Shown piece after piece: positions 1,407 through 64,000 of a stretch of 64,000 nucleotides of DNA. The notes beneath the pieces were generated by a model. That model saw nothing but the letters and a program-made list of their open reading frames with translations. It made no database searches and was not told where the DNA came from. The position numbers were made by a program, and so were the translations under genes. The first letter of the stretch is position 1; each line of letters starts with the position of its first letter. This DNA is from an uncultured Candidatus Saccharibacteria bacterium. GTDB lineage: Bacteria > Patescibacteriota > Dojkabacteria > CAZCSM01. Location of the stretch: contig CAZCSM010000002.1 in assembly GCA_964501355.1 (NCBI GenBank), forward strand, positions 5,884-69,883. Reading direction: 5' to 3'.

Positions 1407-1540
1407 TATAACTAGTTGTATAAACCACTAGCGATAGCTAGTGTGTACGTTTGAAGCGTAGCATTTAGCGAACGTTAGTTTAGAATATAAGAATCGTTTG
1501 TGATAGGCGTTAAGTTTAGAAAAGAGAAAGATTAAGTTAT

Positions 1541-1705
1541 GTTACTTTTGAGACCAAAAGTAACCAAAAGTCTTGAACCAAATGAACTCCATCCAGTACC
1601 AAACCAAAAACAAATAGCAACCGGAATCATTTGGTTCAAACTCCAACGACTAACGACCGAATACAGATAACAAGGGGAATAATATTAAGTTAAGATGTAT
1701 GAATC
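1541..1705 (+). ncRNA. copy A of a repeated structured element family (unclassified; candidate cis-regulatory RNA or small mobile structured element)
   Basis: 5' hairpin gttacttttg-agac-caaaagtaac, long-range helix gaaccaaatga...tcatttggttc, invariant aaatagcaacc loop, conserved tail cgaatacagataacaagggga; five other copies in window. Confidence 0.5.
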
Positions 1706-1718
1706 AGGCGTAGCCTGC

Positions 1719-1749
1719 AAGATAAAAACCACCGGATTCTATCCGGTGG
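1719..1749 (-). terminator. rho-independent terminator of the minus-strand gene 1754..3172
   Basis: minus-strand reading gives stem accaccgga-tagaa-tccggtggt followed by TTTTTATCTT immediately after the stop codon. Confidence 0.7.
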
Positions 1750-1753
1750 TAAT

Positions 1754-3172
1754 TCATTTCTTTTTCAACATTCTTCTAACTAGTTTGAATGGTGCCGAGA
1801 AAAGGTTCTTTTTTAATAATAAAGAGAATAATCCTAGGATTATAATAATTCCTCCTCCAAGTGCAACTACAATGCCAATTACAATGTAAATCCAATTTTG
1901 ACTTAAGAAATCTTGAATTTGTTTAACTAAATCACTTTCGGTAATCACCGGCGCAGTGTATGTTATTGAGCCTTCTATTTTTCCGAACTCTCCATCTTCA
2001 TTTTTTGCATAAGCTTCAATCGTGTTTCTCCCTTCGATTAATTGAACCTCTTGTGCAAAATCTCCATTTTCATCAAATTCGACTTTTATTTCTTCGTCAT
2101 TTAACACAATAAAAACATCAGATGAAACATCAGAAACGGTTCCTTCAATTGTCAAAATGCCTGTTTCTAGATTTACGTAATCTTGAAAGTTATCTAGATT
2201 AGTCTTCAATGTCGGTTCCAATTTTACTTCAATCTTCTCGCCTTCATGTTCCTTAATAACTTCCGGTGTTAGTTCAACTTTCTTTTCACCGGTTTCCGTT
2301 TCAGTAATTTTGTAATCATCCGTTCCAAGGACTGCGCCATTAAGCGTAACGGCAGAATCTTCAGTATATTGATCTTCCGTATCGTAGAAAGTAACCTCGA
2401 CAGGAGCTTCCCAGATCGCCCAGAATTCCCAACTCATCCAGAAAAACATATATTCAAAACCAACATTATTATCCAAATTTTTCACCGCATTTTCGGCTGT
2501 ATCCGTTGACATATCTACATCTCCAAGAAATGTCATCATTGATAAATCCTGTCTATCAAGGGTGAAGTTACTTACGCTTGCTGGGTTCTCTATTTTACTT
2601 AAATCGGTCGTATTAGAACCTTCGAAGAAGAACCATTGATTTATTTCAATATCAATTATTGTAATGTCTACAACAATAATCGGCGCGGGCGTTGGTGAGG
2701 GTGTCGGAGTAGGTGTTGGTGTAGGAGTTGAAGTCGGCGTTGGTTCTGGTTCGGGTGTTGGTACAGGATCGGGGTATTCCTGTTTTTGATTAACCGTAAA
2801 CCAACCATCAGATTTGTCGTTTAAACTTCCTGTCCCCGTTTCGTAACCCGTTAAATCAATAACGTATTGAGTGTTTGTCGTATTTCCAACATCAACTTTC
2901 CAGGAGTAGGATCCAGTGTTTGGAGCTGTGAAAGCGACCCAATCAAGATGACCAGGTCCATGTGAGTAACCAATTGAAACTTTATCTATGTTTGGAGATG
3001 TTTTCCAAGTGATAGTCATCATGTCTCCTTCCGTATACACTTCTCCGCCATTTGGAGATGTTATTGTAACAAATCCATCAATCGCTGCGAAAGCCTTCTG
3101 GGCCGGTATTAGCACCAGCATGTTGTTTGCAATAATCAGCGCAACCAAGAACATTTTTAATAATTTCTTCAT
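1754..3172 (-). CDS. secreted/cell-surface protein with signal peptide, Pro-Thr-rich linker and C-terminal TM anchor plus Lys/Arg tail
   Basis: N-terminal MKKLLKMFLVALIIANNMLVLIPAQKAFA signal-like segment; PTPEPEPTPTSTPTPTPTPTPSPTPAP linker; C-terminal hydrophobic helix then KKNLF..RRMLKKK. Confidence 0.7.
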   Translation of the reverse strand: MKKLLKMFLVALIIANNMLVLIPAQKAFAAIDGFVTITSPNGGEVYTEGDMMTITWKTSPNIDKVSIGYSHGPGHLDWVAFTAPNTGSYSWKVDVGNTTNTQYVIDLTGYETGTGSLNDKSDGWFTVNQKQEYPDPVPTPEPEPTPTSTPTPTPTPTPSPTPAPIIVVDITIIDIEINQWFFFEGSNTTDLSKIENPASVSNFTLDRQDLSMMTFLGDVDMSTDTAENAVKNLDNNVGFEYMFFWMSWEFWAIWEAPVEVTFYDTEDQYTEDSAVTLNGAVLGTDDYKITETETGEKKVELTPEVIKEHEGEKIEVKLEPTLKTNLDNFQDYVNLETGILTIEGTVSDVSSDVFIVLNDEEIKVEFDENGDFAQEVQLIEGRNTIEAYAKNEDGEFGKIEGSITYTAPVITESDLVKQIQDFLSQNWIYIVIGIVVALGGGIIIILGLFSLLLKKNLFSAPFKLVRRMLKKK

Positions 3173-8136: not shown

Positions 8137-8508
8137 ATGGTTAGTAACAAATCTCTAAAATTTGAAGATTTGGAAGTTTGGAAACTTTCTCAAACGTTAT
8201 TCCTAGAGCTGTCGGATATCTTTTATTTGAAATCTTTCCACAATTACTCTTTCCAAGATCAAATTATGAGAGCAGCAATTTCTATTAGTAATAATATTGC
8301 CGAAGGTTATGGACGTGGTGGGAAAAAGGAGCTTATCCGATTCTTGTTTATAGCCAAAGGTTCATGCGAGGAAGTTAAGAATATGATATATTTGGCGTTT
8401 TCTTTAAAATATATCTCGGAAGAACAGAAATTGGAATTTTTGCAGAAAACGACACAATTGAGCGTAAAGCTTAATAATTTTGTCAATTATTTAAAGAAAA
8501 AGGTCTGA
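8137..8508 (+). CDS. four-helix-bundle protein (TIGR02436 / 23S rRNA intervening-sequence protein family), copy 1 of 3
   Basis: 123 aa; motifs LEVWKLSQ..., ISISNNIAEGYGRGGKKELIRFLFIAKGSCEEVKNMIYLA shared with paralogs at 39080..39463 and 45574..45936. Confidence 0.75.
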   Translation: MVSNKSLKFEDLEVWKLSQTLFLELSDIFYLKSFHNYSFQDQIMRAAISISNNIAEGYGRGGKKELIRFLFIAKGSCEEVKNMIYLAFSLKYISEEQKLEFLQKTTQLSVKLNNFVNYLKKKV

Positions 8509-13060: not shown

Positions 13061-13093
13061 TTTAAGGAATATTCTGTGGAGAATTTGGTCTTA

Positions 13094-13295
13094 TATTACT
13101 TTTGTAGCCTAGAATCCCATTTGTCATACTTCGCCAAGGCTTCGTATGACATTTTCCCTTAACAAGGGAAATCTAGTAACCAAAAGCTCTGGGGGGAATG
13201 AGTGTCCTCCAAGCACGAACTTTTTAGAAATAGCAACCGACATCATTCGCCCCAGACCCCAGGTTTGAACAATCGAATACAGATAACAAGGGGAA
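13094..13295 (+). ncRNA. copy B of repeated structured element family (expanded 5' region)
   Basis: contains gtaaccaaaag, long-range helix ggggggaatgagtg...catcattcgcccc, gaaatagcaaccgac, tail cgaatacagataacaaggggaaaa. Confidence 0.45.
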
Positions 13296-13343
13296 AACAC
13301 CGGGGTATGTGTCAGGAATTGTAACTGTTTAAGATAACTTAAT

Positions 13344-14006
13344 ATGACAATGTCTTTTTGGACGCCGAAAAAGAAATTCAGGGTAGTTTTGTGGATAGTT
13401 CAAATCCTGATAATATTTATTCTCTCCTGGATTATTTCCTCCAATTTTCTCTGGAGTGCTTCGGATGATTACAAGAGCGTTTCAGAAAAATATTTAGAAA
13501 CAAAAGAACAATATTCTCAATCAAACATTGCAGAAGAGAGGGAACAGCTTTTTTCTAATACCCTCGATTATGCCACTGCTTCGATAGATCAGATGCTCAA
13601 TCGTTGTTTGGAACTACAGAACTCGATCGAAAATTTCTCCTGGTTAGCGGACGAAGATCGGGCAACCGTTATTTCCCAGATAGATGAGGAGACTCAATAT
13701 TTAGAAAAACAGAGAAATCAAATTTTAACGGCTGCAGATGAAGATGAAGTTCAGGTGCTTTTCAAGCCCGTCTTTGAGAACTGGAAAAGTTTTAAATCAG
13801 ATCTCAGTTCCGTCTCTCGCGAAATCTTTTATTCGACGCTTTTGAAAAAGTGTGAAGGTTTTTCTGAGTTGGAAGATATGACTATTGTTGACTCAGATTT
13901 AGAACTTCGAAGGTATGCAGATTTTACCACCGCGTGTGAGGATTGGAAGGTAGAAGACGTTGACTTGTCGGATTCTCTACTTGAATGGATCAAGGTAATC
14001 GAGTAA
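13344..14006 (+). CDS. hypothetical protein with N-terminal TM helix
   Basis: 220-aa ORF downstream of element copy B; TM VVLWIVQILIIFILSWIISS; remainder charged/helical. Confidence 0.5.
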   Translation: MTMSFWTPKKKFRVVLWIVQILIIFILSWIISSNFLWSASDDYKSVSEKYLETKEQYSQSNIAEEREQLFSNTLDYATASIDQMLNRCLELQNSIENFSWLADEDRATVISQIDEETQYLEKQRNQILTAADEDEVQVLFKPVFENWKSFKSDLSSVSREIFYSTLLKKCEGFSELEDMTIVDSDLELRRYADFTTACEDWKVEDVDLSDSLLEWIKVIE

Positions 14007-16480: not shown

Positions 16481-17494
16481 ATGGCAAAGCGAGCATTAAT
16501 TACAGGATTAACAGGTCAAGATGGTTCATACCTAGCAGAACTCTTACTTGAAAAAGGATATGAGGTCGGAGGAATCGTTCGAAGACTCAGCACCCCGAAT
16601 TATTGGAGAATTGAAGGCTTTTTCGAAAAACTCAAACTTTATGATGGTGATTTAACTGATCAGAATTCTTTGGATTGGGCTGTTCAGGATTTTCAACCTG
16701 ACGAAGTCTATAATCTTGCTGCACAGTCATTTGTAAAAACAAGTTGGCAGCAACCATTGGCTACTGGTGATGTAACGGGAATGGGTGTTGTTCGGATGCT
16801 TGAGGCGTTAAGAAAGTTTTCTCCAAAAGCTAAATTCTATCAGGCTTCTACAAGTGAAATGTTTGGTAATCATGGAGCTGATTGTACACTCAATGAAGAA
16901 TCGGGATTTTATCCGACAAGCCCATACGCCATTGCAAAATTATATGGACATTATTCTGCAATCAATTATCGCGATAGCTACGGAATGTTCACGAGTTGTG
17001 GAATTTTATTCAATCACGAATCACCACGACGAGGCGTTCTGTTCGTAACCAGAAAGATTACTGACGCGGTAGCGCGAATTAAACTAGGACTTGCTGATCA
17101 TATCTCACTAGGATCTCTTGATTCTACAAGAGATTGGGGATATGCAAAGGATTATGTGAAAGCAATGTGGTTGATGCTTCAGCAGGATACGCCCGATGAC
17201 TATGTCGTTGCGACGAACAGATCTATTTCTGTAGGAGAATTCGTGGAAGCCGCTTTCAAGGCAATTGGTGAAGATGATTGGAAGAAATATGTTAGAAAGG
17301 ATCCGAGGTTCTCTCGACCATCAGATTTGAAACATTTGCGAGGAGATTATTCAAAGGCAAAAAAGAAACTTGGTTGGGAGCCGGAAACTTCTCTTGAGGA
17401 GCTTGTCGAGATGATGGTGAAAAAAGATATTGAAAATCTTGAAAACATGCCGGAGTCGGAAAGGCGAATAAATAAGAGTGAGTTTATTATTTAA
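16481..17494 (+). CDS. gmd: GDP-mannose 4,6-dehydratase
   Basis: KRALITGLTGQDGSYLAELLLEKGYEV is the canonical Gmd N-terminus; 337 aa. Confidence 0.85.
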   Translation: MAKRALITGLTGQDGSYLAELLLEKGYEVGGIVRRLSTPNYWRIEGFFEKLKLYDGDLTDQNSLDWAVQDFQPDEVYNLAAQSFVKTSWQQPLATGDVTGMGVVRMLEALRKFSPKAKFYQASTSEMFGNHGADCTLNEESGFYPTSPYAIAKLYGHYSAINYRDSYGMFTSCGILFNHESPRRGVLFVTRKITDAVARIKLGLADHISLGSLDSTRDWGYAKDYVKAMWLMLQQDTPDDYVVATNRSISVGEFVEAAFKAIGEDDWKKYVRKDPRFSRPSDLKHLRGDYSKAKKKLGWEPETSLEELVEMMVKKDIENLENMPESERRINKSEFII

Positions 17495-17566
17495 TTATAT
17501 AAATCACTAGTGTAGCCGTTATTTACGAATTAAGCTTTGTGTTTATGTATGAAGGATTTTAGTTGT

Positions 17567-17726
17567 GTTACTTTTGGAAACAACGCCCACAAGGGGTGCA
17601 CGAAGTAACCAAAATTTTTGAAACAACAGAACGTCAACCAGGCACGACCATAAAACAGATTGCAACCGACATCTGTTGTTTCAAGCTTCAACGGGTAACC
17701 GACCGAATACAGGTAACGAAGGGAAG
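17567..17726 (+). ncRNA. copy C of repeated structured element family
   Basis: 5' hairpin gttactt...aagtaac, helix ttgaaacaacagaacgtc...gacatctgttgtttcaa, cagattgcaaccgac, tail cgaatacaggtaacgaagggaag. Confidence 0.45.
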
Positions 17727-17806
17727 GAGTTAATCTTAAGATGTATGAAGAATGTTTATAGGGTAGAGATAAAATTTATCCTATGATAGTTCACTTAATC
17801 TAAATC

Positions 17807-18694
17807 ATGAAGAAAAGAGTTTTGGTAACTGGTGCGAGCGGATTCGTCGGCCCGTATCTTGTTGCTGAATTAGAAAATTCAGGCTATGAGGTTTTTGGAA
17901 TGGATCGGTCCGCCGGTTCGGATTTTCAAGCGGATTTATTAGATCCGGATTCTTTGGATCAAGTTGTTAGAAAGACGGACCCTGACTATATCTGTCATCT
18001 TGCCGGTTTCAGCTCGGTGAAAGATAGTTTTGACAATCCCGAACTTTGTAAAAAGATTAACGTCGATGGGACGAGGAATTTATTATCTTCCGTCAAAAGG
18101 TTTTGTCCGAATGCTCGAGTGTTAATTATTACCTCAGCCCACGTTTACGGTGAGCCGGAGTACAATCCAATTGATGAACTTCACCCGCTGAATCCAAACA
18201 GCCCATATGCAGAAAGCCGTGTTGAGCAAGAAACGCTGGTATTAGACTCCGGTTTAGATGTCGTAATTTCCCGAAGTTTCAATCATACCGGGCCGGGACA
18301 GCAAAGGGGCTTTGTTTGTCCAGATTTCATCTATGAGGTGAAGGAACTTTTAGCCGGAAAATGCGAAGAAATTAAGGTTGGGAATTTATCTGCTGAACGG
18401 GATATAAGCGATGTGAGAGATGTTGTAAAAGCCTATCGTTTGCTTCTGGAAAAAGGCAAAACAGGTGAAATTTATAATGTTTGTTCAGGACGAGCTGTTT
18501 CAATTCAATCTATATTGGATTCGATTTTAAGTCTGGCTGAACTGGACGCATCCAAAGTCATTGTTGATCCCGAGAAATTTCGACCGGTAGATGTTCCCCT
18601 CATGTATGGCGATAATTCCAAAATTAAGAAATTGGGGTGGGAACCCGAGATTGGAATTGAGGAGACATTGGGAGATATGTGGGAGAAAAAGTAA
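17807..18694 (+). CDS. NAD-dependent epimerase/dehydratase, likely GDP-4-dehydro-6-deoxy-D-mannose reductase (Rmd-like)
   Basis: KRVLVTGASGFVGPYLVAEL Rossmann; ~295 aa short-chain fold; lies just downstream of gmd, as rmd does in GDP-D-rhamnose clusters. Confidence 0.55.
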   Translation: MKKRVLVTGASGFVGPYLVAELENSGYEVFGMDRSAGSDFQADLLDPDSLDQVVRKTDPDYICHLAGFSSVKDSFDNPELCKKINVDGTRNLLSSVKRFCPNARVLIITSAHVYGEPEYNPIDELHPLNPNSPYAESRVEQETLVLDSGLDVVISRSFNHTGPGQQRGFVCPDFIYEVKELLAGKCEEIKVGNLSAERDISDVRDVVKAYRLLLEKGKTGEIYNVCSGRAVSIQSILDSILSLAELDASKVIVDPEKFRPVDVPLMYGDNSKIKKLGWEPEIGIEETLGDMWEKK

Positions 18695-21107: not shown

Positions 21108-21169
21108 TGTAGAGTTATTGAATTGCTGTAATAATTTATTCTATGTCATAATCAGTTGATTTGTTTAAT

Positions 21170-21390
21170 GTAAGTAAATTACAAATTACAAATAACAAAT
21201 AAATCTCAAATCACAAATTCAAAATACCAAACAATACACACTACTGTTATTAACAAGATTATTTAGATTCGTTCTTGATACTTCTACAACCTCAGTACAA
21301 GTTTTTGAATTTTGGTAATTTTTAGTGAGCTCATCAAACTATTGTAATTTGTTTGGAAATTGAAATTTGGAATTTGATGCTTAACCACAA
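21170..21390. repeat. AT-rich modular inverted repeat pair upstream of GT2 gene (modules caaat/ccaaacaat ... atttgtttggaaattgaaatttggaatttgatgctt), no ORF between the arms
   Basis: right arm 21345-21390 matches arms at 42055-42100 and 45960-46000; left arm is a degenerate reverse copy. Confidence 0.5.
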
Positions 21391-21504
21391 TTTGTCGAGT
21401 TTTTGATTTTTTGTTTTAATTCATGTGTCCAACCAGAACATAAGCTTTTTGGAAAAAGAATTCTAGTGTATTATGTAAGAGGTTTTACTTTGAGATAAAT
21501 TGTT

Positions 21505-33401: not shown

Positions 33402-35741
33402 ATGAAAATAGGATTTCTTTGTGAACGAATGCTTCTTGGTTTCGGTGTTGATCTTGTAATTCACAATCAAGCAGAGTTACTGGGTCAGATGGGTCATGAC
33501 GTTACAGTTTACACTTTGCGAACGGATGAAACTTTTAATAATAAATATTATCGAATCATCAAACTCAATTCCGGATTGCACCTCAATCCTCTCAAAACAG
33601 AGCTTGGAGTTGTAAAAAATACCGCTAGATTTCTTAACAATCAAGATGTCGATGTTTGGATATCTGAAACGTACCCATTCCATATATTGACATGGTTTTT
33701 GAAGAAACCCGTCTTCATAATAGAGTATGGCACAAGTTCAAGTGAAGGAATGAAGTTTAAGCAAAAGATAAATTTTTTCTATCAGAAATATGTTGATAGA
33801 TTATTATTCTTCCCTTTTTCAAAAAAGATAATAACAATTTCACAATATTTGAAAGATGCTCAGGTTCCTTTCTATTTACGACATAAGGCTATTCCTCAGC
33901 ATTTAGGAGTAGATCATTATATTAATGATTTCAAGGAAAGGAAAGGCAACTCATCTGCATTGAAAAAAGATTTAAAGTTGAACAAGGATGATTTCGTTTT
34001 GCTTTATGTAGGCAGATTGAGACATGAGGCTCAGCCGTATAAAGGTGTTGCTGATTTGATTGAAATATATCAGCAGGTTAAAAAGAAAAATTCAAAAGTA
34101 AAGCTGATAATGGCAGGTTATGGAGATGAAGAGGATAAAAAGAATTTGGAGAAAAAGGGAATAATTGCGTTACCTTGCGTTCCCAAAGAGGATCTAGAAG
34201 AATTATACGATTTGTGTGATTTATGTGTTTCTGCAACTAAGTGGGAGGGATTTAATCTTCCTATGTTTGAAGCACAGACATTCGGTAAAGTTCCGGTGAT
34301 TTATAATATCGGGCCTCATCCGGAACTGATGAATGATGGAGAACATGCTTTTCTTGTTAATGATCAGGATGAATTTATAGAAAAGGTTCTTTTGCTATCA
34401 AAGGATGAAAATTTGAAGAAGTCTATGGAGAAAAAGGCAATTGAACATTCTTCCAATTTTACATGGAAGAAAAATGTGGAGAAATTTGAAAAACTATTGA
34501 GGAAAGAGGTAAAGATAAAAAAGGAATATAAAAAAGATTGGGTTGATCTGATAACTCTTAACTATGATGGAAAATCAATAACGGAAGACTTGTTTAATTC
34601 TCTGAAGAAGAACAAATACAAAAATGTTAATTATGTAATGGTTGATAATGGATCTCATGATGGTTCCGCCGATTACATAGAAAAGAAATTCCATAATGTA
34701 AAAGTAATTCGTTCAAATAAGAACCTATTTTTTCCAAGAGGAAATAATCTTGCTATAAAACAAACGAACTCAGAATTTATAATGTTGGTTAACAATGACA
34801 TTATTGTCGAGCCGGATGCAATATCAAAAATGGTGAATAGAATGAAAAGTGATCCAATGATTGTAGCGGTTGCAAGTAAGATGTTGTCAATGAAAAATAA
34901 AAGAGTGATAGACTCTATTGGAACTGTGATGATGCCCGATGGTTCACCTTTTAATCGCGGAATTGGGCAGATTGATTTGGGACAATATGATAAAAGCGAA
35001 GATGTATTTGGTGCTTGTTTTGGCAGTGTTTTGCTGAGAAGGTCTTCGTATGAAAATGTAGTTGGTCCGATGGACAATGATTATTTCGGATATTTTGAAG
35101 ATGTAGATTGGTGTTTCCGTGCTAATATGTTGGGATATAAGATTGTCACTGAACCGGAAGCTATTGTTTATCACGCTCACAGTGCAACTTCCGCAAAGAG
35201 GAATTATGATTGGAAATTTTTCTTAATTCAGAGAAATTTTATCTGGACTATTCTCAAAAATTTTCAAAGAAATAAGGCTCTTCGAGGTGTAGTAAGAAGG
35301 TTGCTTGCATTATCAAGGGAGTTTGTTTTCTCCAAATCGCTTAGTAGGAAATGGGCAAGCTTGAAAGTTATTATGGCAACTATAATTTGTTCTCCGAAGT
35401 TTCTTGTAAAGAGATTAGATTTGCAAAGGAAAAGAATGGTCTCGGATGCTGAAATCTTCCGATTTTCTATTAACGAGTTTTCCTTCTTTGAACCAGTTAA
35501 ATATGAACCTATTTATTCTCTTGATAATTTAGAGAAGACTTTTGAAAGACTTGCTAATTTGAACAAAAAAGATATAAAGATTTATAAAGAAATCAGAAAT
35601 TTGAATCTGACAAAATCTGCTTCCGATGGACAGTGGGATAAAAAAGCAATTAAACTTTTGAAATCTTTGGAAAGTAGAATTGGTCGAGAAGACACAAAAA
35701 GATTTTTGGAATTTATTGTCGAGAAGAAGTCTTGGATATAA
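33402..35741 (+). CDS. two-domain glycosyltransferase: N-terminal GT4 (GT-B) fused to C-terminal GT2 (GT-A)
   Basis: EGFNLPMFEAQTFGKVPVIYN (GT4) in first half; ITLNYDGK..VMVDNGSHDGS..LVNNDIIVEPD (GT2 DxD) in second half; 779 aa. Confidence 0.7.
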   Translation: MKIGFLCERMLLGFGVDLVIHNQAELLGQMGHDVTVYTLRTDETFNNKYYRIIKLNSGLHLNPLKTELGVVKNTARFLNNQDVDVWISETYPFHILTWFLKKPVFIIEYGTSSSEGMKFKQKINFFYQKYVDRLLFFPFSKKIITISQYLKDAQVPFYLRHKAIPQHLGVDHYINDFKERKGNSSALKKDLKLNKDDFVLLYVGRLRHEAQPYKGVADLIEIYQQVKKKNSKVKLIMAGYGDEEDKKNLEKKGIIALPCVPKEDLEELYDLCDLCVSATKWEGFNLPMFEAQTFGKVPVIYNIGPHPELMNDGEHAFLVNDQDEFIEKVLLLSKDENLKKSMEKKAIEHSSNFTWKKNVEKFEKLLRKEVKIKKEYKKDWVDLITLNYDGKSITEDLFNSLKKNKYKNVNYVMVDNGSHDGSADYIEKKFHNVKVIRSNKNLFFPRGNNLAIKQTNSEFIMLVNNDIIVEPDAISKMVNRMKSDPMIVAVASKMLSMKNKRVIDSIGTVMMPDGSPFNRGIGQIDLGQYDKSEDVFGACFGSVLLRRSSYENVVGPMDNDYFGYFEDVDWCFRANMLGYKIVTEPEAIVYHAHSATSAKRNYDWKFFLIQRNFIWTILKNFQRNKALRGVVRRLLALSREFVFSKSLSRKWASLKVIMATIICSPKFLVKRLDLQRKRMVSDAEIFRFSINEFSFFEPVKYEPIYSLDNLEKTFERLANLNKKDIKIYKEIRNLNLTKSASDGQWDKKAIKLLKSLESRIGREDTKRFLEFIVEKKSWI

Positions 35742-36936
35742 GCTTCTTAACCTTGTTTTTTAGAGCGTTAACATTAAAGACTTTGTTCTCTAGAATTTCT
35801 ATTGTCTTTCTTTGATTATTAATTTCTCCGTCTAAGTGGGCAACGGCATTTTGGAAATTTTCAATATGCTGATTCTTTTCTTCTAGTTCTTTTTGAAAGT
35901 TTTCAATATGCTGATTTTTTTCTTTCAGTTCTTTTTGGAAGTTTTCAATATGCTGATTTTTTTCCTTCAGTTCTTTTTGGAAGTTTTCAATATGCTGATT
36001 TTTTTCACTCAGTTCTTTTTGGAAGTTTTCAATATGTTCATTCTTTTCATCTATTGTTTTTACAAGATCTGGTATTTGTGAGGTTTCTTTCTGTAGATTC
36101 TCTATATGTTTCTGTTTGGCTTCTGCTTCTTTCAAAAGCTTTTGAACTAGTTCTTCTTTCTCTTCGATTATCCTTGTTTGGTTTTCTACTAATTGGTGAA
36201 CCTCAAGCATTGGCTTTTTGTTTTGCGGAAGATCGCTAATTCCCTTTGTTTTTTCTGCAGAGATTTTGAATATGTATTGATATGCAATCGATTCCTTTTT
36301 AGTAATTAGATTAATGAACGCGGATGTTGTTTTTAATCCAAGCTTTTCAAGTTCTTCATTTAAGTACTTTGTTGGAAAATCGAAAGTTGTGTAATGTAGT
36401 TCATTAACAAACAGGTCTGCTTTTTTGATGAGATTACTGAATTTCTTTAAAGTGAAATATTGAAGATGTGTGTCATCAAGAATTCCTCTTTCTTCCGATT
36501 CGAAATCGCCTCTCAATAGTTCCAACCTGATTGATACGTGTGCAATGTTTGGAATAGACACAATTATGAATCCCTTCGGTTTTATGTATGATTTCAGTCT
36601 CTTCAGTAACTCCAGAGGATTCTTTAAATGTTCAAGCAAATCTGCGACTATAATATAGTCGAAACTATTTTTTTCGAACTCTTTTTCCCATATACTATCT
36701 TCAACATTCGCGATGACAACCTTCTTACACACCTTCTTTGCGATTTCCGCATCTTCCTTTGACAACTCTATTCCAGAGACTTGGCAGTTTTTTTGTTGAA
36801 TTAAATATTCCGCAAGGTAGCCGCTACTGCACCCTATATCAAGTATTTCGGCACCATCATCAATCATATTAACAATTTTGGTAAGCGAAACATTTTCATT
36901 TGAAACATCAACTTTTTGGTGGGAATATTTGCTCAT
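35713..36936 (-). CDS. SAM-dependent methyltransferase fused to a tandem-repeat coiled-coil tail; WbdD-like chain terminator/ruler candidate
   Basis: N-terminal ILDIGCSSGYLAEYL..IIVADLLEHL MT motifs; C-terminal ~150 aa of 15-aa repeats EKNQHIENFQKELKE x4-5; last gene of the wzm-wzt operon. Confidence 0.65.
   Translation of the reverse strand: MSKYSHQKVDVSNENVSLTKIVNMIDDGAEILDIGCSSGYLAEYLIQQKNCQVSGIELSKEDAEIAKKVCKKVVIANVEDSIWEKEFEKNSFDYIIVADLLEHLKNPLELLKRLKSYIKPKGFIIVSIPNIAHVSIRLELLRGDFESEERGILDDTHLQYFTLKKFSNLIKKADLFVNELHYTTFDFPTKYLNEELEKLGLKTTSAFINLITKKESIAYQYIFKISAEKTKGISDLPQNKKPMLEVHQLVENQTRIIEEKEELVQKLLKEAEAKQKHIENLQKETSQIPDLVKTIDEKNEHIENFQKELSEKNQHIENFQKELKEKNQHIENFQKELKEKNQHIENFQKELEEKNQHIENFQNAVAHLDGEINNQRKTIEILENKVFNVNALKNKVKKLISKTSSRQ
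35845..36048. repeat. tandem 45-nt repeat (about 4.5 copies) encoding the coiled-coil repeats of the WbdD-like gene
   Basis: plus-strand unit gttttcaatatgctgatttttttcyttcagttctttttggaa repeated head-to-tail. Confidence 0.85.
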
Positions 36937-39079: not shown

Positions 39080-39463
39080 TTACAAATTTTTAGATAAATA
39101 TTTAATCAAGTTACTTATCTTCACTGATATGGTAACACAATTCTTTCGAAGTTCTTCTGATTTTGCAGAACCTATAAAGTTTTGATTCTCTGCAATATGC
39201 AACATGCTTCGCACTTCTCCGCAAGATCCTTTGGAAATGTATAAGAATCTTATAAGTTCTCTGTTGCTTTGTCTTTCGTAACCTTCAGCAATGTTATTGC
39301 TTATTGATAAAGTTGCTCTTAATATCTGATCTTTGAAATAGTAATCCCTAAATTTCTTATCTCCAAATATCTGAGATATGTCTATGAATAATTGTATTCC
39401 TAACTGCCAAATTTCTAAATCTTCAAAATTTGTTTTACTATGTTTGATCGATGTTTTATCCAT
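39080..39463 (-). CDS. four-helix-bundle protein (TIGR02436-like), copy 2 of 3, inserted between wzm and wzt
   Basis: LEIWQLGIQLF..ATLSISNNIAEGYERQSNRELIRFLYISKGSCGEVRSMLHIA; flanked by inverted repeats aaaacatagttcaaac / gtttgaaactatgtttt. Confidence 0.75.
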   Translation of the reverse strand: MDKTSIKHSKTNFEDLEIWQLGIQLFIDISQIFGDKKFRDYYFKDQILRATLSISNNIAEGYERQSNRELIRFLYISKGSCGEVRSMLHIAENQNFIGSAKSEELRKNCVTISVKISNLIKYLSKNL

Positions 39464-41924: not shown

Positions 41925-41959
41925 TTATAATTTCAAAGTGATACTAGTTTTTTAAGAAA

Positions 41960-42145
41960 TTCCAAATTCTAAATTACAAATATCAAATAAATTACAATAT
42001 ATAAAATCTCAAAATAATTATTTGTAGGTTTTGTGATTTGGCGAATTAATGTTTGAGATTTGTTTGGAAATTAAGATTTTGGATTTGGTGCTTTAAGATA
42101 ATGATTCTTATACATGGATTCCGTGTCGAGCACGGAATGACGATT
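41960..42145. repeat. AT-rich modular inverted-repeat pair with ~35-nt spacer (no cargo) followed by one gatcccgtgtcg-type palindromic unit, immediately upstream of GT4 gene
   Basis: aaattccaaattctaaattacaaatatcaaata ... gagatttgtttggaaattaagattttggatttggtgcttt; then ggattccgtgtcgagcacggaatgacg at 42116-42142. Confidence 0.55.
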
Positions 42146-45530: not shown

Positions 45531-45570
45531 ATCAAATTCCAAATTCTAAATAACAATTTCCAAACAAATC
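45531..45570. repeat. left AT-rich modular arm flanking the four-helix-bundle gene (contains caatttccaaacaaat)
   Basis: reverse complement of module atttgtttggaaattg found in right arm at 45965-45980. Confidence 0.55.
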
Positions 45571-45573
45571 ACA

Positions 45574-45936
45574 ATGACCAAAATCTCAAATAACAAACAA
45601 TATGATTTAGAGGAAAGAACTTTAGAATATGGTAAGAGAATTGTTAGATTCTGCAAATCTTTATCAAAAGATAAAATAAATTCTAGACTTTGTGATCAAT
45701 GTTTGCGCTCTGGAACATCTATAGGAGCGAATTATAGAGAAGCAAATGAAACAGAAACAAAAAAGGACTTTTTGTTTAGGATGAGGATATCTCGAAAGGA
45801 AGCAAAAGAGACGATTTATTGGTTACAATTAATAACAGAAGCAAATCTAGAACTAGAAAATAAGATTAAACCTTTGTTAGAAGAAACTTCTGAACTTCTA
45901 AAAATAATTTCGAGTATAATCGAGAAGTGTAAATAG
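45574..45936 (+). CDS. four-helix-bundle protein (TIGR02436-like), copy 3 of 3, between inverted AT-rich arms
   Basis: 120 aa; GTSIGANYREANETETKKDFLFRMRISRKEAKETIYWLQLI parallels paralogs. Confidence 0.7.
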   Translation: MTKISNNKQYDLEERTLEYGKRIVRFCKSLSKDKINSRLCDQCLRSGTSIGANYREANETETKKDFLFRMRISRKEAKETIYWLQLITEANLELENKIKPLLEETSELLKIISSIIEKCK

Positions 45937-46000
45937 TTTAGAATTTTGAATTTGTTATTTGATATTTGTTTGGAAATTGAGATTTTGGATTTGGTGCTTT
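45937..46000. repeat. right AT-rich modular arm (tttagaattttgaatttgttatttgatatttgtttggaaattgagattttggatttggtgcttt)
   Basis: near-identical to 42055-42100 and 21345-21390. Confidence 0.6.
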
Positions 46001-46046
46001 TTATTAAGTTTTGTATTTTGTGAATTGTTAATAAGTTTAATGCTAT

Positions 46047-47201: not shown

Positions 47202-47223
47202 TGTGTTCTAGAAAAATTGGTTA

Positions 47224-47362
47224 TGTTACTTTTGCAAACAAAAGTAACCAAAATTTCTGAAACAAACCAGTTCCGACAAATAGCAATCCGATACAATTAA
47301 CTACCGGAATGGCCCGTTTCAGACTTCATCGGTTAACAACCTAATACAAATAACAAGGGGAA
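47224..47362 (+). ncRNA. copy D of repeated structured element family; its 3' AAGGGG doubles as the ribosome-binding site of GT4 gene 47364
   Basis: gttacttttgcaaacaaaagtaacc hairpin, helix ctgaaac..ttccg / cggaa..gtttcag, caaatagcaatccgatac, tail ctaatacaaataacaaggggaaa-ATG. Confidence 0.5.
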
Positions 47363-47363
47363 A

Positions 47364-48503
47364 ATGGAATATGAAAAACAAAAATTGAAAGTTGCTCTTG
47401 TCCATGACTACCTCCAGTGGCACGGTGGTGCGGAGAAGGTTTTGGAGGCTTTGCATGAAATTTGGCCGGATGCTCCGGTTTATACTTCTGTTTATAATCC
47501 GGATACAATGCCGGATCTTTACAAGTCTTGGGATATCAGAACTTCCTTTATGCAAAAATTACCGTGGTGGAGCAAGTTTTTGAAACATTATTCCTTTCTT
47601 TATCCGATGGCTTTTGAGCAGTTCGACTTTTCAGAATACGACTTGGTCATTTCTTCATCTGCCGGATTTGCAAAGGGAATTATTACAAGACCAGAAACGA
47701 CTCATATTGCATATACTCATACTCCTCCTCGTTTCCAGTGGGGATATGCTACTGCAACGCGTGAAAAGCTAAACGGTTTTTACACAAACTGGATTTTGCC
47801 TCCGATTGATAATTACCTAAGGATTTGGGATCAATGTGCTGCAAAACGGGTTGATTATTTTGTATGTAATTCGAGAGAGGTACAAAAAAGAATTAAAAAG
47901 ATTTATAGACAGGATTCAACTGTAATAAATCCACCGGTCGAATTTGAACGATTTGCGGATCATGAATCGAAGAAGGAGAATTATTTTGTAACCATTGGCA
48001 GATTAGAAAGGTATAAGAATTTTGACTTATTAATAAAAGCTTTTAATAAACTTGGTCTTGATTACAAGTTAAAAATTATAGGTGGTGGAAGTGACGAAGC
48101 TTATCTTAGGTCGTTAGCACATTCAAATATCGAGTTTATGGGTCGCGCTTCTGACGATGATTTGACCAAGCTTTTGTGCAATGCAAAAGCTTTCATTTAC
48201 GCCGCAGAGGAAGATTTTGGAATTGTTATGGCGGAATCCTTAGCGGCTGGAACACCTATTGTTGCTTATGGAAAAGCGGGGGCGCTTGAAATTGTGGAAG
48301 AGAATAAAACAGGGGTGTTTTTCAAAGATCTTTCTGAAGAATCGATTGCTTCCGCGATTCATAATTTTGAAAAGATGGAATTTGATTTAGAGTATTGCAA
48401 AAAACAGGCCCAAAGATTTTCGAAGGAACGGTTTAAGAATGAAATAAAAAATTTTGTTTCAAAGTTGTTACAAAGTAGAAGCAAAGTAGATACAAATGTT
48501 TAG
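47364..48503 (+). CDS. GT4-family glycosyltransferase (paralog 2)
   Basis: KVALVHDYLQWHGGAEKVLEALHEIWPDAPVYTS...VAYGKAGALEIVEENKTG; 379 aa. Confidence 0.7.
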   Translation: MEYEKQKLKVALVHDYLQWHGGAEKVLEALHEIWPDAPVYTSVYNPDTMPDLYKSWDIRTSFMQKLPWWSKFLKHYSFLYPMAFEQFDFSEYDLVISSSAGFAKGIITRPETTHIAYTHTPPRFQWGYATATREKLNGFYTNWILPPIDNYLRIWDQCAAKRVDYFVCNSREVQKRIKKIYRQDSTVINPPVEFERFADHESKKENYFVTIGRLERYKNFDLLIKAFNKLGLDYKLKIIGGGSDEAYLRSLAHSNIEFMGRASDDDLTKLLCNAKAFIYAAEEDFGIVMAESLAAGTPIVAYGKAGALEIVEENKTGVFFKDLSEESIASAIHNFEKMEFDLEYCKKQAQRFSKERFKNEIKNFVSKLLQSRSKVDTNV

Positions 48504-48668
48504 AAGGTTTTTATGAGATAATTTCTAATTACTAATATCTAATTTCTGAACAAATTCAAAATATCAAATCCCAATCCTTGTTTAGATTAATTAGGTTAAT
48601 TAGGTCAATTAGAAATTTGGATCGAACTGTATGACGTTATATTATTAAAATAAACATAAATTACTTAC

Positions 48669-53366: not shown

Positions 53367-54047
53367 ATGGAGATTATGTTGCCGATTATCCTCACTACGA
53401 TCCCTCTTGTAATTATTGCGAGTACTGTAATTGGAGTTGTTACTCTGCTAAAAAGAAAGAAGGAAGGTCCCGTTAACTTGGATTTTAAATTAGTCTTCAG
53501 AGTTTATTATTACATAATAATGTTTGCTTCAGTGGTATCAATCGGAATTGGAGGAATGTTTACACTCAAAAGTCTTTTTACTAATGTCTGGGGGAAAGAA
53601 TTTAGTTATCGGAAAGAGTATGTCTCAGAAGAATATTATACAAAACCAGTTCTTGAGGATGAAGTTGTTCGTGAACCGGAATATGAATATGTAAAAGATG
53701 TCGAGAAAAAGGATTTAATTTCTGGATTGAGCTACTTACTAATTGCGACTCCGATATTACTTTTACACGTGTATGGTTTGTCTCAACTGGAAAAGAGCGA
53801 CGGTGTGAACTGGCAGATTAAGAAAGTATACCTGATTGTTTCTTTGGTTGTGTTCTCGATGGTCGGTGTTATCTCTCTTCCCGTTGGAATTTATCAGACT
53901 TTACAGTTCTTCATTACAGAGCAGGCGGATGATAATTGGACCTCAATCGTTCCAGGTGAGTATCTCGCAACTGCATGTTCATTTGTCCCAATCTGGGTAT
54001 ATTATTTGATGAAGTTTAATAAAGTTGTATTGAAAACCAAGGATTGA
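53367..54047 (+). CDS. hypothetical multi-TM membrane protein
   Basis: 226-aa ORF, 4-5 hydrophobic helices. Confidence 0.5.
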   Translation: MEIMLPIILTTIPLVIIASTVIGVVTLLKRKKEGPVNLDFKLVFRVYYYIIMFASVVSIGIGGMFTLKSLFTNVWGKEFSYRKEYVSEEYYTKPVLEDEVVREPEYEYVKDVEKKDLISGLSYLLIATPILLLHVYGLSQLEKSDGVNWQIKKVYLIVSLVVFSMVGVISLPVGIYQTLQFFITEQADDNWTSIVPGEYLATACSFVPIWVYYLMKFNKVVLKTKD

Positions 54048-54072
54048 TAAATTGTGGGTTTTGGGGTAAAAT
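54044..54072 (+). promoter_or_regulatory. sigma70-like promoter for the glyQS T-box leader (TTGATA-17 nt-TAAAAT)
   Basis: -35 ttgata 54044-54049, -10 taaaat 54067-54072, spacer 17 nt; read directly. Confidence 0.4.
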
Positions 54073-54077
54073 CTTTA

Positions 54078-54270
54078 TATAAGCGATCGGGGAATACTGT
54101 GAAAGCCCGAAATAAATTGGCAAATCGATGAGAATAAATCCTGTGCTGAGCATTGTCGAAGCATTAAAGTGTCCTTGTCGCTCGGGTTTTCTGAGTGGAG
54201 GGGAATAAAGGTGGAACCACCGTGAATTACGGTCCTTGTTTGATTATTTATCAAGCAGGGACCTTTTTTT
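54078..54270 (+). promoter_or_regulatory. T-box riboswitch leader, glycine-specific (minimal glyQS type): specifier candidate GGC-A, antiterminator with UGGAACC bulge, overlapping terminator
   Basis: aaGG-UGGAACC-ACCG-ugaauua-CGGU-CCuu at 54208-54237 reproduces the A1/7-nt bulge/A2 antiterminator; bulge UGGA complements tRNA-Gly UCCA; terminator ggtccttgtttga-ttattta-tcaagcagggacc + T7 at 54231-54270; aauuGGCAaau upstream. Confidence 0.6.
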
Positions 54271-54349
54271 ATTCTTTAAACGAAAGCTATTATTTACTTG
54301 TTCGATTCCGTGTATATTAATAACGTATAAATTTTATTTTGTTGGCTCT

Positions 54350-54490
54350 GTTACTTTTGCAAACAAAAGTAACCAAAATTTCTGGGACAACCCAGTTCCG
54401 ACAAATAGCAACCAAATACAGATAACTACCGGAATGGGATTGGCCCAGGCCCCAACGGCTAACAACCTGATACAAATAACATGGGGAAAT
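54350..54490 (+). ncRNA. copy E of repeated structured element family, lying between the T-box terminator and the glyQS start codon
   Basis: gttacttttgcaaacaaaagtaacc, helix ctgggacaacccagttccg / cggaatgggattggcccag, caaatagcaaccaaatac, tail ctgatacaaataacatggggaaa. Confidence 0.5.
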
Positions 54491-54632
54491 ATAAAACATA
54501 ATTAGCAGATATTAATGAAAGTTGTTTTTAATATACAATTTTATACATCCACTCAGCCTGCCGGCCGGACAGGCAGGGGTGGTGGTTGGGTTTACGTTTT
54601 AGCGATTTAATTCTATTTAAGTTAATTTTATT

Positions 54633-56046: not shown

Positions 56047-56144
56047 GAGCTGTCTGGTAACAAATATTATAGGTTTGACATACATTTATATCCATGATAT
56101 AAAGGATACAATCTTAAATCGAGTATTTAAGAGGTCAAACCTTT

Positions 56145-56180
56145 GCCGCGAACGATATTCAACGTTCGCGGCTTTATTTT
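56145..56180 (+). terminator. rho-independent terminator
   Basis: gccgcgaacg-atattcaa-cgttcgcggc followed by TTTATTTT. Confidence 0.6.
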
Positions 56181-56249
56181 CTTCCTTTGTGAATGTATTG
56201 AAATTTTTGGTTCAATGCACGGCTTGACTCGTATTTTCGACAGTGTTTA

Positions 56250-56420
56250 ACTAACAGTGACGGTATTCCTTCCTATAAAGGAAGGCGGTGCACTGAGCTT
56301 GTCGAATGTGTGCCGAATGAAATGAGGCGGAAGGTGTTTCCTTATTCACGACAGTTGAAAACACACCCCGATTCGCCAACCGCGAATCGCCCCTCTTTCT
56401 AGAGGGGAAACGAAGAGCCG
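56250..56420. repeat. second cluster of short palindromic hairpin units (ccttcc-tataaa-ggaagg; cgattcgc-caac-cgcgaatcg; cccctc-tttctag-agggg)
   Basis: read directly; same unit families as the 40340-40900 cluster. Confidence 0.6.
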
Positions 56421-56498
56421 GATAATGGTGATTTACTTACTTGTCAATCTCAGTCTTTACTGATAGCATCGAAGTATCGTTTAGAAATTATTGAAATA

Positions 56499-63721: not shown

Positions 63722-63883
63722 TGTATTATCATTGGAAATTAAGTTAGTAATATTGTAGCAGAAATATGAAAGAGATGGGAGAGAAGAAAATATTGTATAA
63801 GTTGCGATACATGTTACGAATCGTAAATAGAGGACCTGCTTCAGAATAACGACAATTTTAGTAATCATACGAAAACAAAGTTC

Positions 63884-64000
63884 TTTCTCTCATACTTTTG
63901 AGACCAAAAGTATACAAAAGTCTTGGGGTGAATAAGTGCCCTTCGTACACGAACTAATTACAAATAGCAACCGGCATCATTCACCCCAAACCCCAGATTT
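63884..64000 (+). ncRNA. copy F of repeated structured element family, truncated by window end
   Basis: atacttttgagaccaaaagtat hairpin (compensatory A:T swap relative to copy A), helix cttggggtgaataagtg / catcattcaccccaa, caaatagcaaccggcatc. Confidence 0.45.

Follow-up and report, generated by a model that had tools for sequence, protein, structure and literature searches.

A family of structured intergenic elements with covarying helices in a member of the Patescibacteria, and its possible role as a co-transcribed RNA module

Background

[quoted passage not shown] Here we describe a family of structured intergenic elements, present in six copies (A-F) in a 64-kb stretch of contig CAZCSM010000002.1 (hereafter the window, meaning the whole stretch analysed) from an uncultured member of the Patescibacteria, or Candidate Phyla Radiation (CPR). 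The element resembles BOX, RUP, Correia, ERIC and BIME in being 100-200 nt long, multi-copy, intergenic and endowed with a strong secondary structure. Like boxA/B/C it is modular, here with a core, an optional 3' module and optional insertions at the apex of its first hairpin, P1. Its presence or absence varies between relatives, as that of interspersed repeats does, and it too would be expected to act on the messages that carry it. In contrast to these repeats, it lacks terminal inverted repeats and target-site duplications, its ends are not mutually paired, and its copies have diverged (pairwise identity 52-83%) yet are compensated in their helices, with the conserved sequence lying in unpaired loops and the tail. 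Furthermore, all the copies found share one orientation, and no related insertion sequence (IS) or transposase was seen.

Cis-acting leaders provide a second set of comparisons. Several copies per genome with different genes downstream, conserved single-stranded motifs borne on variable covarying helices, and orientation with the downstream gene are all reminiscent of T-box or RAT/PyrR-type protein-binding leaders. Unlike T-box leaders, the element has no T-box sequence, specifier loop or terminator/antiterminator, and the genuine T-box upstream of copy E is a separate unit; unlike both T-box and RAT/PyrR leaders, it stands at variable distances from start codons, has one copy without a downstream gene, and does not show conserved occupancy. 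It resembles JUMPstart/ops and EAR in lying in or beside polysaccharide clusters in gene orientation, and differs from them in having no ops octamer in its copies and no Rfam match, and in not being confined to polysaccharide operons or to operon starts. With the strand-specifically folded single-stranded DNA of IS200/IS605 subterminal hairpins and integron attC sites it has in common a maintained structure, a uniform orientation and what would be a fold-dependent function. By our reading, it differs from IS200/IS605 in that the flanks display no conserved target tetranucleotide, and from attC in having no R''/R' core sites of the GTTRRRY type; its copies do not delimit single cassettes, and no TnpA, TnpB or integrase lies nearby. 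In our judgement the element constitutes a new family to be placed beside the interspersed co-transcribed repeats, one that does not qualify as a MITE and bears the signature of a functional structured RNA.

To our knowledge, almost nothing is known of RNA-based regulation and small repeats in the Patescibacteria. CPR genomes are tiny, and six copies of about 150 nt in 64 kb represent a real investment. The family also joins the turnover of mobile repeats with the covariation of functional RNAs, features that are usually separate. If it is a cis-acting RNA with a dedicated partner it would represent a new regulatory module, and if it acts at the DNA level it would be a mobile element without the usual hallmarks.

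Results and discussion

Six copies on a single strand

A covariance model was built from eight copies, namely the six in the window and two from related genomes, and was then run on the window. It recovered exactly six places, all on the + strand, with scores of 108-155 bits (E-values of 1e-26 to 1e-38), and beyond these no match below E = 0.008. An initial annotation, made from this sequence alone, had placed six + strand copies at these positions, and both direct reading of the sequence and the covariance model confirm all six. Independently of the model, a 20-nt tail pattern gave four matches in the window at three or fewer mismatches, as against 0.00 expected from shuffles. The six copies align over approximately 150 nt. 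The copies and the parts of copy A are as follows (P2a and P2b being the outer and inner helices that follow P1; L007, L019, L020, L022-L024, L031 and L032 denote contigs of related genomes).

1528..1682, + strand: copy A core, 154.9 bits, minimum free energy (MFE) z-score -4.15
1541-1564, + strand: P1 of copy A, GTTACTTTTG/CAAAAGTAAC with loop AGAC
1565-1572, + strand: invariant A4 linker of copy A
1573-1585 paired with 1627-1639, + strand: P2a of copy A
1588-1590 paired with 1623-1625, + strand: P2b of copy A
1591-1622 and 1640-1680, + strand: loop and tail, respectively, of copy A
1683..1775, + strand: 3' module of copy A, common to copies A and C and the L032 copy
13081..13298, + strand: copy B, 128.3 bits, with an ATG 49 nt downstream at 13344
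17554..17728, + strand: copy C, 131 bits, flanked by Gmd (16481-17494) and an Rmd-like gene (17807)
17729..17795, + strand: copy C 3' module, which is the 1683-1775 module in decayed form, ending 11 nt before the ATG at 17807
47211..47365, + strand: copy D, 151.4 bits, of the subtype comprising D, E and the L022 copy
54337..54492, + strand: copy E, 146.8 bits, downstream of the glyQS T-box leader's terminator (54231-54263) and upstream of the glyQS ATG (54633)
63879..64000, + strand: copy F, 108.5 bits, truncated at model position 114 of 149, where the window ends

A protein-coding repeat was ruled out, as no reading frame stays open across all the copies, with B and D containing stop codons in all six frames.

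Anatomy and covariation of the element

The element begins with P1, a 10-bp hairpin of the form GTTACTTTTG-N4-CAAAAGTAAC, whose upper part is invariant and whose lower pairs covary from T:A to A:T or C:G. A compensatory T:A to A:T swap between copies A and F, noted earlier, is real and corresponds to pair 7/90. The apex of P1 tolerates insertions, with a 27-nt hairpin in copy C and about 70 nt in copy B (approximately 13104-13173) that form two perfect hairpins. P1 is followed on its 3' side by AAAA, which is invariant across the copies. Thereafter comes P2a, an outer helix of 8-13 bp with a sequence that varies between copies, then a small internal loop, and then P2b, an inner helix of 3-5 bp that occurs as TCC/GGA, GTC/GAC, TGTC/GACA, TGCC/GGCA, TTCCG/CGGAA or TTGC/GCAA.

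The claim that this long-range helix diverges between copies and yet remains complementary is borne out by the alignment. Across P1 and P2 in eight sequences, 89.8% of the cells are paired, as against 25.7-48.2% when the partners are slid by 1-3 columns, and half of the pairs (13 of 26) show changes on both sides. Cells with double changes number 36, compared to 13.0 in shuffles, and the covariation score of 0.426 was reached by none of 500 shuffles and compares with at most 0.172 for slid partners. The MFE z-scores on the + strand range from -3.3 to -4.2, and the alifold consensus structure computed for the copies also counts in support of a selected structure. Hence, the structure of the element is under selection. 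Particularly telling are copies D and E, which are 83% identical and differ in three consecutive pairs of P2a (AAA/UUU versus GGG/CCC); three adjacent compensated pairs of this kind indicate that pairing was maintained in place after duplication. The copies from relatives add further double changes with both helices kept, namely CCCACTTTTG/CAAAAGTGG, TTGAAAC/GTTTCAA and ATTGC/GCAAT in the L022 copy and GACAC/GTGTC in the L024 copy.

Two subtypes can be recognized on the basis of the P2 loop. The first, comprising copies A, B, C, F and the L024 copy, has a loop of approximately 35-41 nt with AAATAGCAACC at its 3' end. The second, comprising D, E and the L022 copy, has a loop of 29 nt, in which AAATAGCAAYC stands near the 5' side and ATAACTACC at the 3' side. 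The loop motif AAATAGCAACC, which had been described as invariant, is therefore not so: copy C has AGATTGCAACC, and D and E carry the motif 5' in their shorter loop, with ATAACTACC at the aligned position. The tail is an A/C-rich segment of about 40 nt ending in AAGGGGA, and by hand count the five complete copies all place the tail motif 90-92 nt beyond the end of P1. On our reading of the alignment, the 13-nt motif UAAC(R)ACCG(N)AAU can be seen two to three times in the P2 loop and P2b shoulder and once in the tail, and both helices have a near-copy of their 3' strand behind them, namely CAAAAG after P1 and YYCAR after P2. The A/C-rich motif is present in three copies in the D/E/L022 subtype, and BLAST pairs the tail of copy A with the loop of copy E. 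The unpaired parts are A-rich and also have a C content of 24%, versus 14% in other intergenic DNA, and these C-rich parts run against the local positive GC skew, which extends over the window except for the final 8 kb, in which the - strand carries most genes.

The segment after P2 switches between CUUC/CUCC and CCCC together with a switch of the P2a 5' strand between GAA and GGG. Besides P1 and P2, an exhaustive helix search yielded nothing more than an alternative 4-bp pairing between the P2 5' strand and this post-P2 segment, in which pairs 103/171 and 104/170 show partial covariation (AU in 3-4 sequences, GC in 3). Beyond the core, copies A and C and the L032 copy possess a 3' module of about 85 nt, consisting of TTAAGATGTATGAA, a small hairpin, AGATAAAA, a second hairpin (1728-1750 in A) and AGTTCATTT. 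In copy A this second hairpin is a perfect 10-bp stem that is scored as terminator-like on both strands.

Phyletic distribution and turnover

GlyRS and GlmS place the host in the Patescibacteria, with Candidatus Dojkabacteria/WS6 as the best named relatives at approximately 57-67% identity. Close relatives are present only on short metagenomic contigs. Searching these gave the following picture (percentages are identities of GlyRS unless stated otherwise).

L022:3555-3701, 79% relative: full diverged copy
L024:2377-2549, 75% relative: full diverged copy
L020:2518-2551, 89% relative: head of a copy
L032:1-49, 89% relative: tail of a copy, orthologous to copy C
8.8 kb of an 84% relative: no copy
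11 kb of a 65% relative: no copy
5.3 kb on a further contig of an 89% relative: no copy
14 kb of a Dojkabacteria genome (67% for GlmS): no copy

In wider collections the pattern AGTAACCAAAAN{85,97}ATACARRTAAC returned only chance matches, four in genome contigs and nine in metagenome contigs, this pattern being too strict for diverged copies, so that diverged members would be missed. Viral contigs scanned with the P1 palindrome yielded only P1-like palindromes of at most 25 bits, and BLAST found no similar DNA in plasmid and phage collections. The family thus looks restricted to a narrow clade, and such a narrow distribution would make it a good lineage marker, be it an RNA or a DNA element.

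Three orthologous sites compared across four to six related genomes show presence/absence polymorphism, each being occupied in part of the genomes and empty in the rest. The site between the T-box leader and glyQS is filled in the window and in L022 and empty in L019, L007, L024 and L023; in relatives with an empty site, glyQS follows the T-box terminator almost directly or an unrelated sequence stands there. The site between glyQS and the SpoU gene is filled in L020 and L024 and empty in the window, L007 and L022. Likewise, a copy occupies the Gmd-Rmd site in the window and in L032, from an 89% relative, and the site is empty in L031, from a 72% relative. The initial annotation had offered a mobile structured small element as one of its alternatives, and the patchy occupancy of orthologous sites in relatives fits this idea. 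Copy E, which is 83% identical to D, is only 62% identical to the L022 copy at the same site, indicating that new copies arise by duplication within a genome or that copies homogenise. By our reading, the short-read contigs of relatives that start or end inside the element suggest that it is a repeat there too.

Genomic context

The window consists mostly of a surface-polysaccharide gene cluster together with housekeeping genes. Copies B, C, D and E are flanked by co-directional + strand genes, and the copies in L022, L024, L020 and L032 also lie, in the same orientation, between co-directional genes. The 162-nt spacer between two paralogous GT4 genes is filled by copy D, which begins 23 nt past the stop codon of the upstream gene and whose GGGG stops 3 nt short of the ATG at 47364. 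Copy E lies downstream of the terminator of the T-box-like glyQS leader, 143 nt upstream of the glyQS ATG; given this position between a T-box terminator and the gene it controls, it constitutes a natural test of an effect on expression. Copy F is found 16-24 nt from the start codon (63868) of a - strand VanZ-family gene, beside the start of a - strand operon.

Most copies have no adjoining sigma-70-like promoter on either strand, the exception being a weak 9/12 match on the - strand by copy E (TTAATA-16-TATATT); a weak promoter-like site on the - strand also overlaps P1 of copy F. That the promoter scan works in this genome is indicated by the genuine-looking promoters found for the T-box leader and a nearby small RNA unit. 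None of the core copies was flagged as containing a + strand terminator: CCAAAA comes after P1 and ACYYCA after P2, and since neither hairpin is followed by a U-tract on the + strand, the element is not a + strand terminator. The proposal that the AAGGGG of the tail supplies a Shine-Dalgarno sequence for the gene at 47364 found no support. Although GGGG stands 3 nt before that ATG, almost none of approximately 60 genes in the window have a Shine-Dalgarno-like sequence, their upstream regions being A/T-rich, and this makes such a role for the tail weak.

A possible role as a co-transcribed RNA module

Taking these observations together, we tentatively propose, with a probability of about 0.45, that the copies are lineage-restricted modules of about 150 nt that work as RNA co-transcribed with the flanking + strand genes, in leader or intercistronic position. 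Read-through on the + strand would be the simplest route of transcription, given the co-directional flanking genes and the lack of an adjoining promoter at most copies. The two helices could then form a scaffold on which repeated single-stranded A/C-rich sites, and the terminal G-tract, are presented to a trans-acting factor, which we infer would most likely be a protein. Binding of this factor, or a shift in helix register, might alter the fate of the downstream message after transcription, by affecting how stable it is, how it is processed, or how accessible the tail and the G-tract just 5' of the next cistron are. The family itself would spread by duplication to new intergenic sites, with rapid gain or loss. 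A bolder form of this idea, which we regard as improbable, is that the element is a portable RNA device of a new class, particular to a CPR lineage poor in Shine-Dalgarno sequences, acting as a two-register switch or a self-processing insulator. Such a device would place copies of itself in the leaders of mRNAs and in the gaps between cistrons, sites downstream of a T-box included, and might set the stability or translation of the next cistron via a dedicated RNA-binding factor, making it a mobile regulatory module at the level of RNA rather than a DNA transposon.

Several observations weigh against a co-transcribed + strand module. Copy A lies between convergent genes with no + strand gene downstream, so that the earlier statement that the element stands upstream of unrelated + strand genes fails for this copy. 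The distance to the next start codon varies from 0 to approximately 190 nt. In L024, promoter-like sites occur at and just after the end of the copy, which may lie outside the SpoU message. The patchy occupancy among relatives implies that no single copy is indispensable. The alternative pairing of P2, along with a CYYC:GGGG helix suggested by alifold, did not rise above controls with 8-10 sequences, and these are to be treated as leads only. The remaining difficulties concern the strand. Non-canonical cells in P1 and P2 on the + strand comprise nine A·C or C·A against one U·G, so that G·U is not tolerated above A·C at the helix positions of this strand. Such A·C cells become G·U pairs on the - strand, whose consensus fold shows about ten of them. 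The fixed P1 and P2 structure is more stable on the - strand in four of seven copies, every reverse complement folds more stably, and by our reading an invariant UUUU located 2-4 nt after P2 on the - strand has a terminator-like appearance.

The evidence on the working strand from energy, z-scores, structure conservation index and wobble counts is thus contradictory: the z-scores are mixed, with - strand values reaching -5.5, and the structure conservation index is 1.03 on the + strand versus 0.88 on the - strand. The A·C excess may be explained, as an argument rather than a test, by positions that are simply unpaired in an A/C-rich element. We favour the + strand on account of the co-orientation at all independent loci with genes on both sides, the lack of a consistent promoter of its own, the structure conservation index and the A-rich unpaired regions.

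Alternative explanations

The contradictory strand evidence raises the possibility of a functional - strand RNA, with a single-stranded 5' region (the reverse complement of the tail, UUCCCCUUGUUAUCUGUAUUCGG...) followed by the P2 hairpin and a UUUU terminator; it could be a small RNA antisense to the + strand messages bearing the element, or a one-way terminator against antisense transcription. Beyond the 9-10 G·U pairs (against about one on the + strand) and the more stable fold, a conserved tail serving as 5' seed with a variable covarying helix as terminator stem would match the usual pattern of small RNAs, the promoter-like site by E lies just upstream on the appropriate strand, copy A follows a - strand gene, and copy F is just upstream of a - strand operon. 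We nevertheless consider both variants, taken jointly, unlikely. The promoter-like match is restricted to E, with none elsewhere or only the weak site overlapping P1 of F, and in the case of D, which abuts a + strand start codon, the promoter would fall inside coding sequence. A P2 loop of 29-41 nt is far above that of a terminator, and only four U follow after a spacer of 2-4 nt. P1, the best conserved hairpin, would come after the terminator without a role, and loops rich in G and U, as they would be here, are unusual for a functional RNA. To these may be added the lower conservation index of the - strand and the possible origin of the A·C excess in unpaired positions. Rather unlikely too, if somewhat less so, is a non-autonomous mobile element that works as DNA, with the hairpins forming in single-stranded DNA during replication or transposition, the orientation reflecting the replication strand, and the copies being selfish intergenic passengers. 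Such an element would readily account for the patchy occupancy at three orthologous sites, for the closer relationship of E to D than to its L022 counterpart, and for contigs of relatives breaking inside the element as they do in repeats; the positive GC skew places the window within one replichore, no promoter is attached to the copies, and several of them lie just 3' of terminators. However, local alignment of each end against the reverse complement of the other gave scores of 5-9 compared with shuffle means of 6.2-8.6, and the 12-nt flanks of seven copies have no common direct repeat. A classical MITE was accordingly rejected for want of terminal inverted repeats and target-site duplications. 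No transposase, integrase or reverse transcriptase was detected among the scanned open reading frames (ORFs) of the window, and plasmid and phage collections hold no similar DNA. Moreover, the copies are old by their divergence, yet the helices are compensated in every full copy, where a selfish element should leave decayed relics, and the variable sequence of P2 implies that a common transposase could not recognise it by sequence.

The initial annotation had itself suggested a processive-antitermination leader of polysaccharide operons, of the EAR/LoaP/JUMPstart-ops kind. This is attractive in that four of the six copies lie in or beside a polysaccharide cluster (glycosyltransferases, Gmd/Rmd, Wzm/Wzt and a sugar transferase) and are co-oriented with its genes; nonetheless, membership in such a class is largely refuted and its probability is minimal. 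The ops octamer GGCGGTAG has no exact match in the 64 kb, and its 14 one-mismatch matches, which are at chance level (10.3 expected), include none inside a copy. Scanning the window on both strands against the 4227 models of Rfam 15, which include EAR, T-box, riboswitches, ribozymes and HEARO/OLE/ROOL, gave no match at gathering thresholds, and relaxing the E-value limit to 10 for the surroundings of copies A and E produced nothing better than chance-level matches of 10-26 bits, none covering the element meaningfully; the expectation that the element would be absent from Rfam was thereby upheld. The window ORFs scanned against Pfam include no member of the NusG family and hence no NusG paralogue. 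Copies also stand between the T-box terminator and glyQS and between convergent genes, and relatives have them upstream of SpoU; several are operon-internal rather than at an operon start, and their occupancy is patchy. By comparison, a riboswitch or a self-processing ribozyme, with the conserved nucleotides of loop and tail forming a ligand pocket or active site on the P1/P2 scaffold, fares little better and is highly improbable. Variable covarying helices combined with conserved loop, junction and tail nucleotides, as well as the constant length seen by hand count, would suit it, and the high copy number and gene-matched orientation recall several classes of self-cleaving ribozymes, which occur in many copies oriented with genes. 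Nevertheless, no Rfam ribozyme or riboswitch model matches, the exhaustive helix search gave no supported tertiary or pseudoknot pairing, no expression platform stands at a fixed distance from start codons, and the rearrangement of the loop between the two subtypes is hard to reconcile with a fixed pocket. A single-ligand riboswitch had already been judged unlikely, and we concur, in light of the unrelated neighbours (a hypothetical gene, the Rmd-like gene, GT4, glyQS and, in relatives, SpoU) and the variable distances to start codons. A T-box is not hidden in the element either, since it has neither the T-box sequence GGUGGNACC nor an antiterminator/terminator pair or Stem I.

Other structured elements in the vicinity of glyQS and elsewhere

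The glyQS gene is preceded by a T-box-like leader (54044-54263), with a promoter-like TTGATA-17-TAAAAT at 54044-54072, the T-box AAAGGTGGAACCACC and the terminator at 54231-54263. The Rfam T-box model scores only 26.7 bits (E = 5e-4) on 54047-54263, far below the gathering score of 93, suggesting that this lineage carries a divergent, short T-box. Counterparts of the leader are present in L007, L019, L022, L023 and L024, and that of the 89% relative (L019:1020-1165) is interrupted between T-box sequence and terminator by about 95 inserted nt that contain two hairpins. Between the element and glyQS, both genomes with a copy at this site contain a small ORF (54515-54610, 31 aa; L022:3688-3777, 29 aa), with a weak common patch, F-[NS]-IQ-x-x-TS, and in L022 its ATG comes directly after the element tail. 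These ORFs may encode a leader peptide or may be due to chance.

Just downstream of glyQS lies a small conserved transcription unit (56062-56185), with the promoter TTGACA-17-TATAAA, which is also found in relatives.

L007:2940-3075, L020:2318-2500, L022:5372-5535 and L024:2140-2285: counterparts of the unit downstream of glyQS

The stem of its hairpin covaries (TCTTAAAT/ATTTAAGA versus TCTTGCAA/TTGCAAGA) and bears a variable apical insertion; it is followed by an invariant AAGAGGTCAAACCTTT and then by a covarying terminator. The unit has no Rfam match and represents a candidate small RNA of about 75 nt or more. Further along, the place upstream of the SpoU-family methylase gene that in relatives holds a copy of the element is taken up in the window by a G-rich stretch (56230-56440) with three clean hairpins (TTCCTTCC...GGAAGG, GATTCGC...GCGAATC and CCCCTC...GAGGGG), likewise without an Rfam match.

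A second family of intergenic repeats consists of long AT-rich hairpins with the arms AAATTCCAAATTCTAAATTACAAAT... and ...TTGAGATTTGTTTGGAAATT.

21169-21412, 41957-42123, 45534-46029 and 48519-48620: members of the second repeat family

At 45534-46029 the arms enclose a gene (45574-45936) of the 23S rRNA intervening-sequence protein family, resembling an intervening sequence with its own ORF. This gene is one of three paralogous 23S_rRNA_IVP (four-helix-bundle) genes within the polysaccharide cluster, the other two being located at 8137-8508 on the + strand and 39080-39463 on the - strand, with 45574-45936 itself on the + strand. Finally, a - strand gene with a methyltransferase domain (35713-36936) contains six tandem units of 42 nt, or 14 codons, at 35807-36100.

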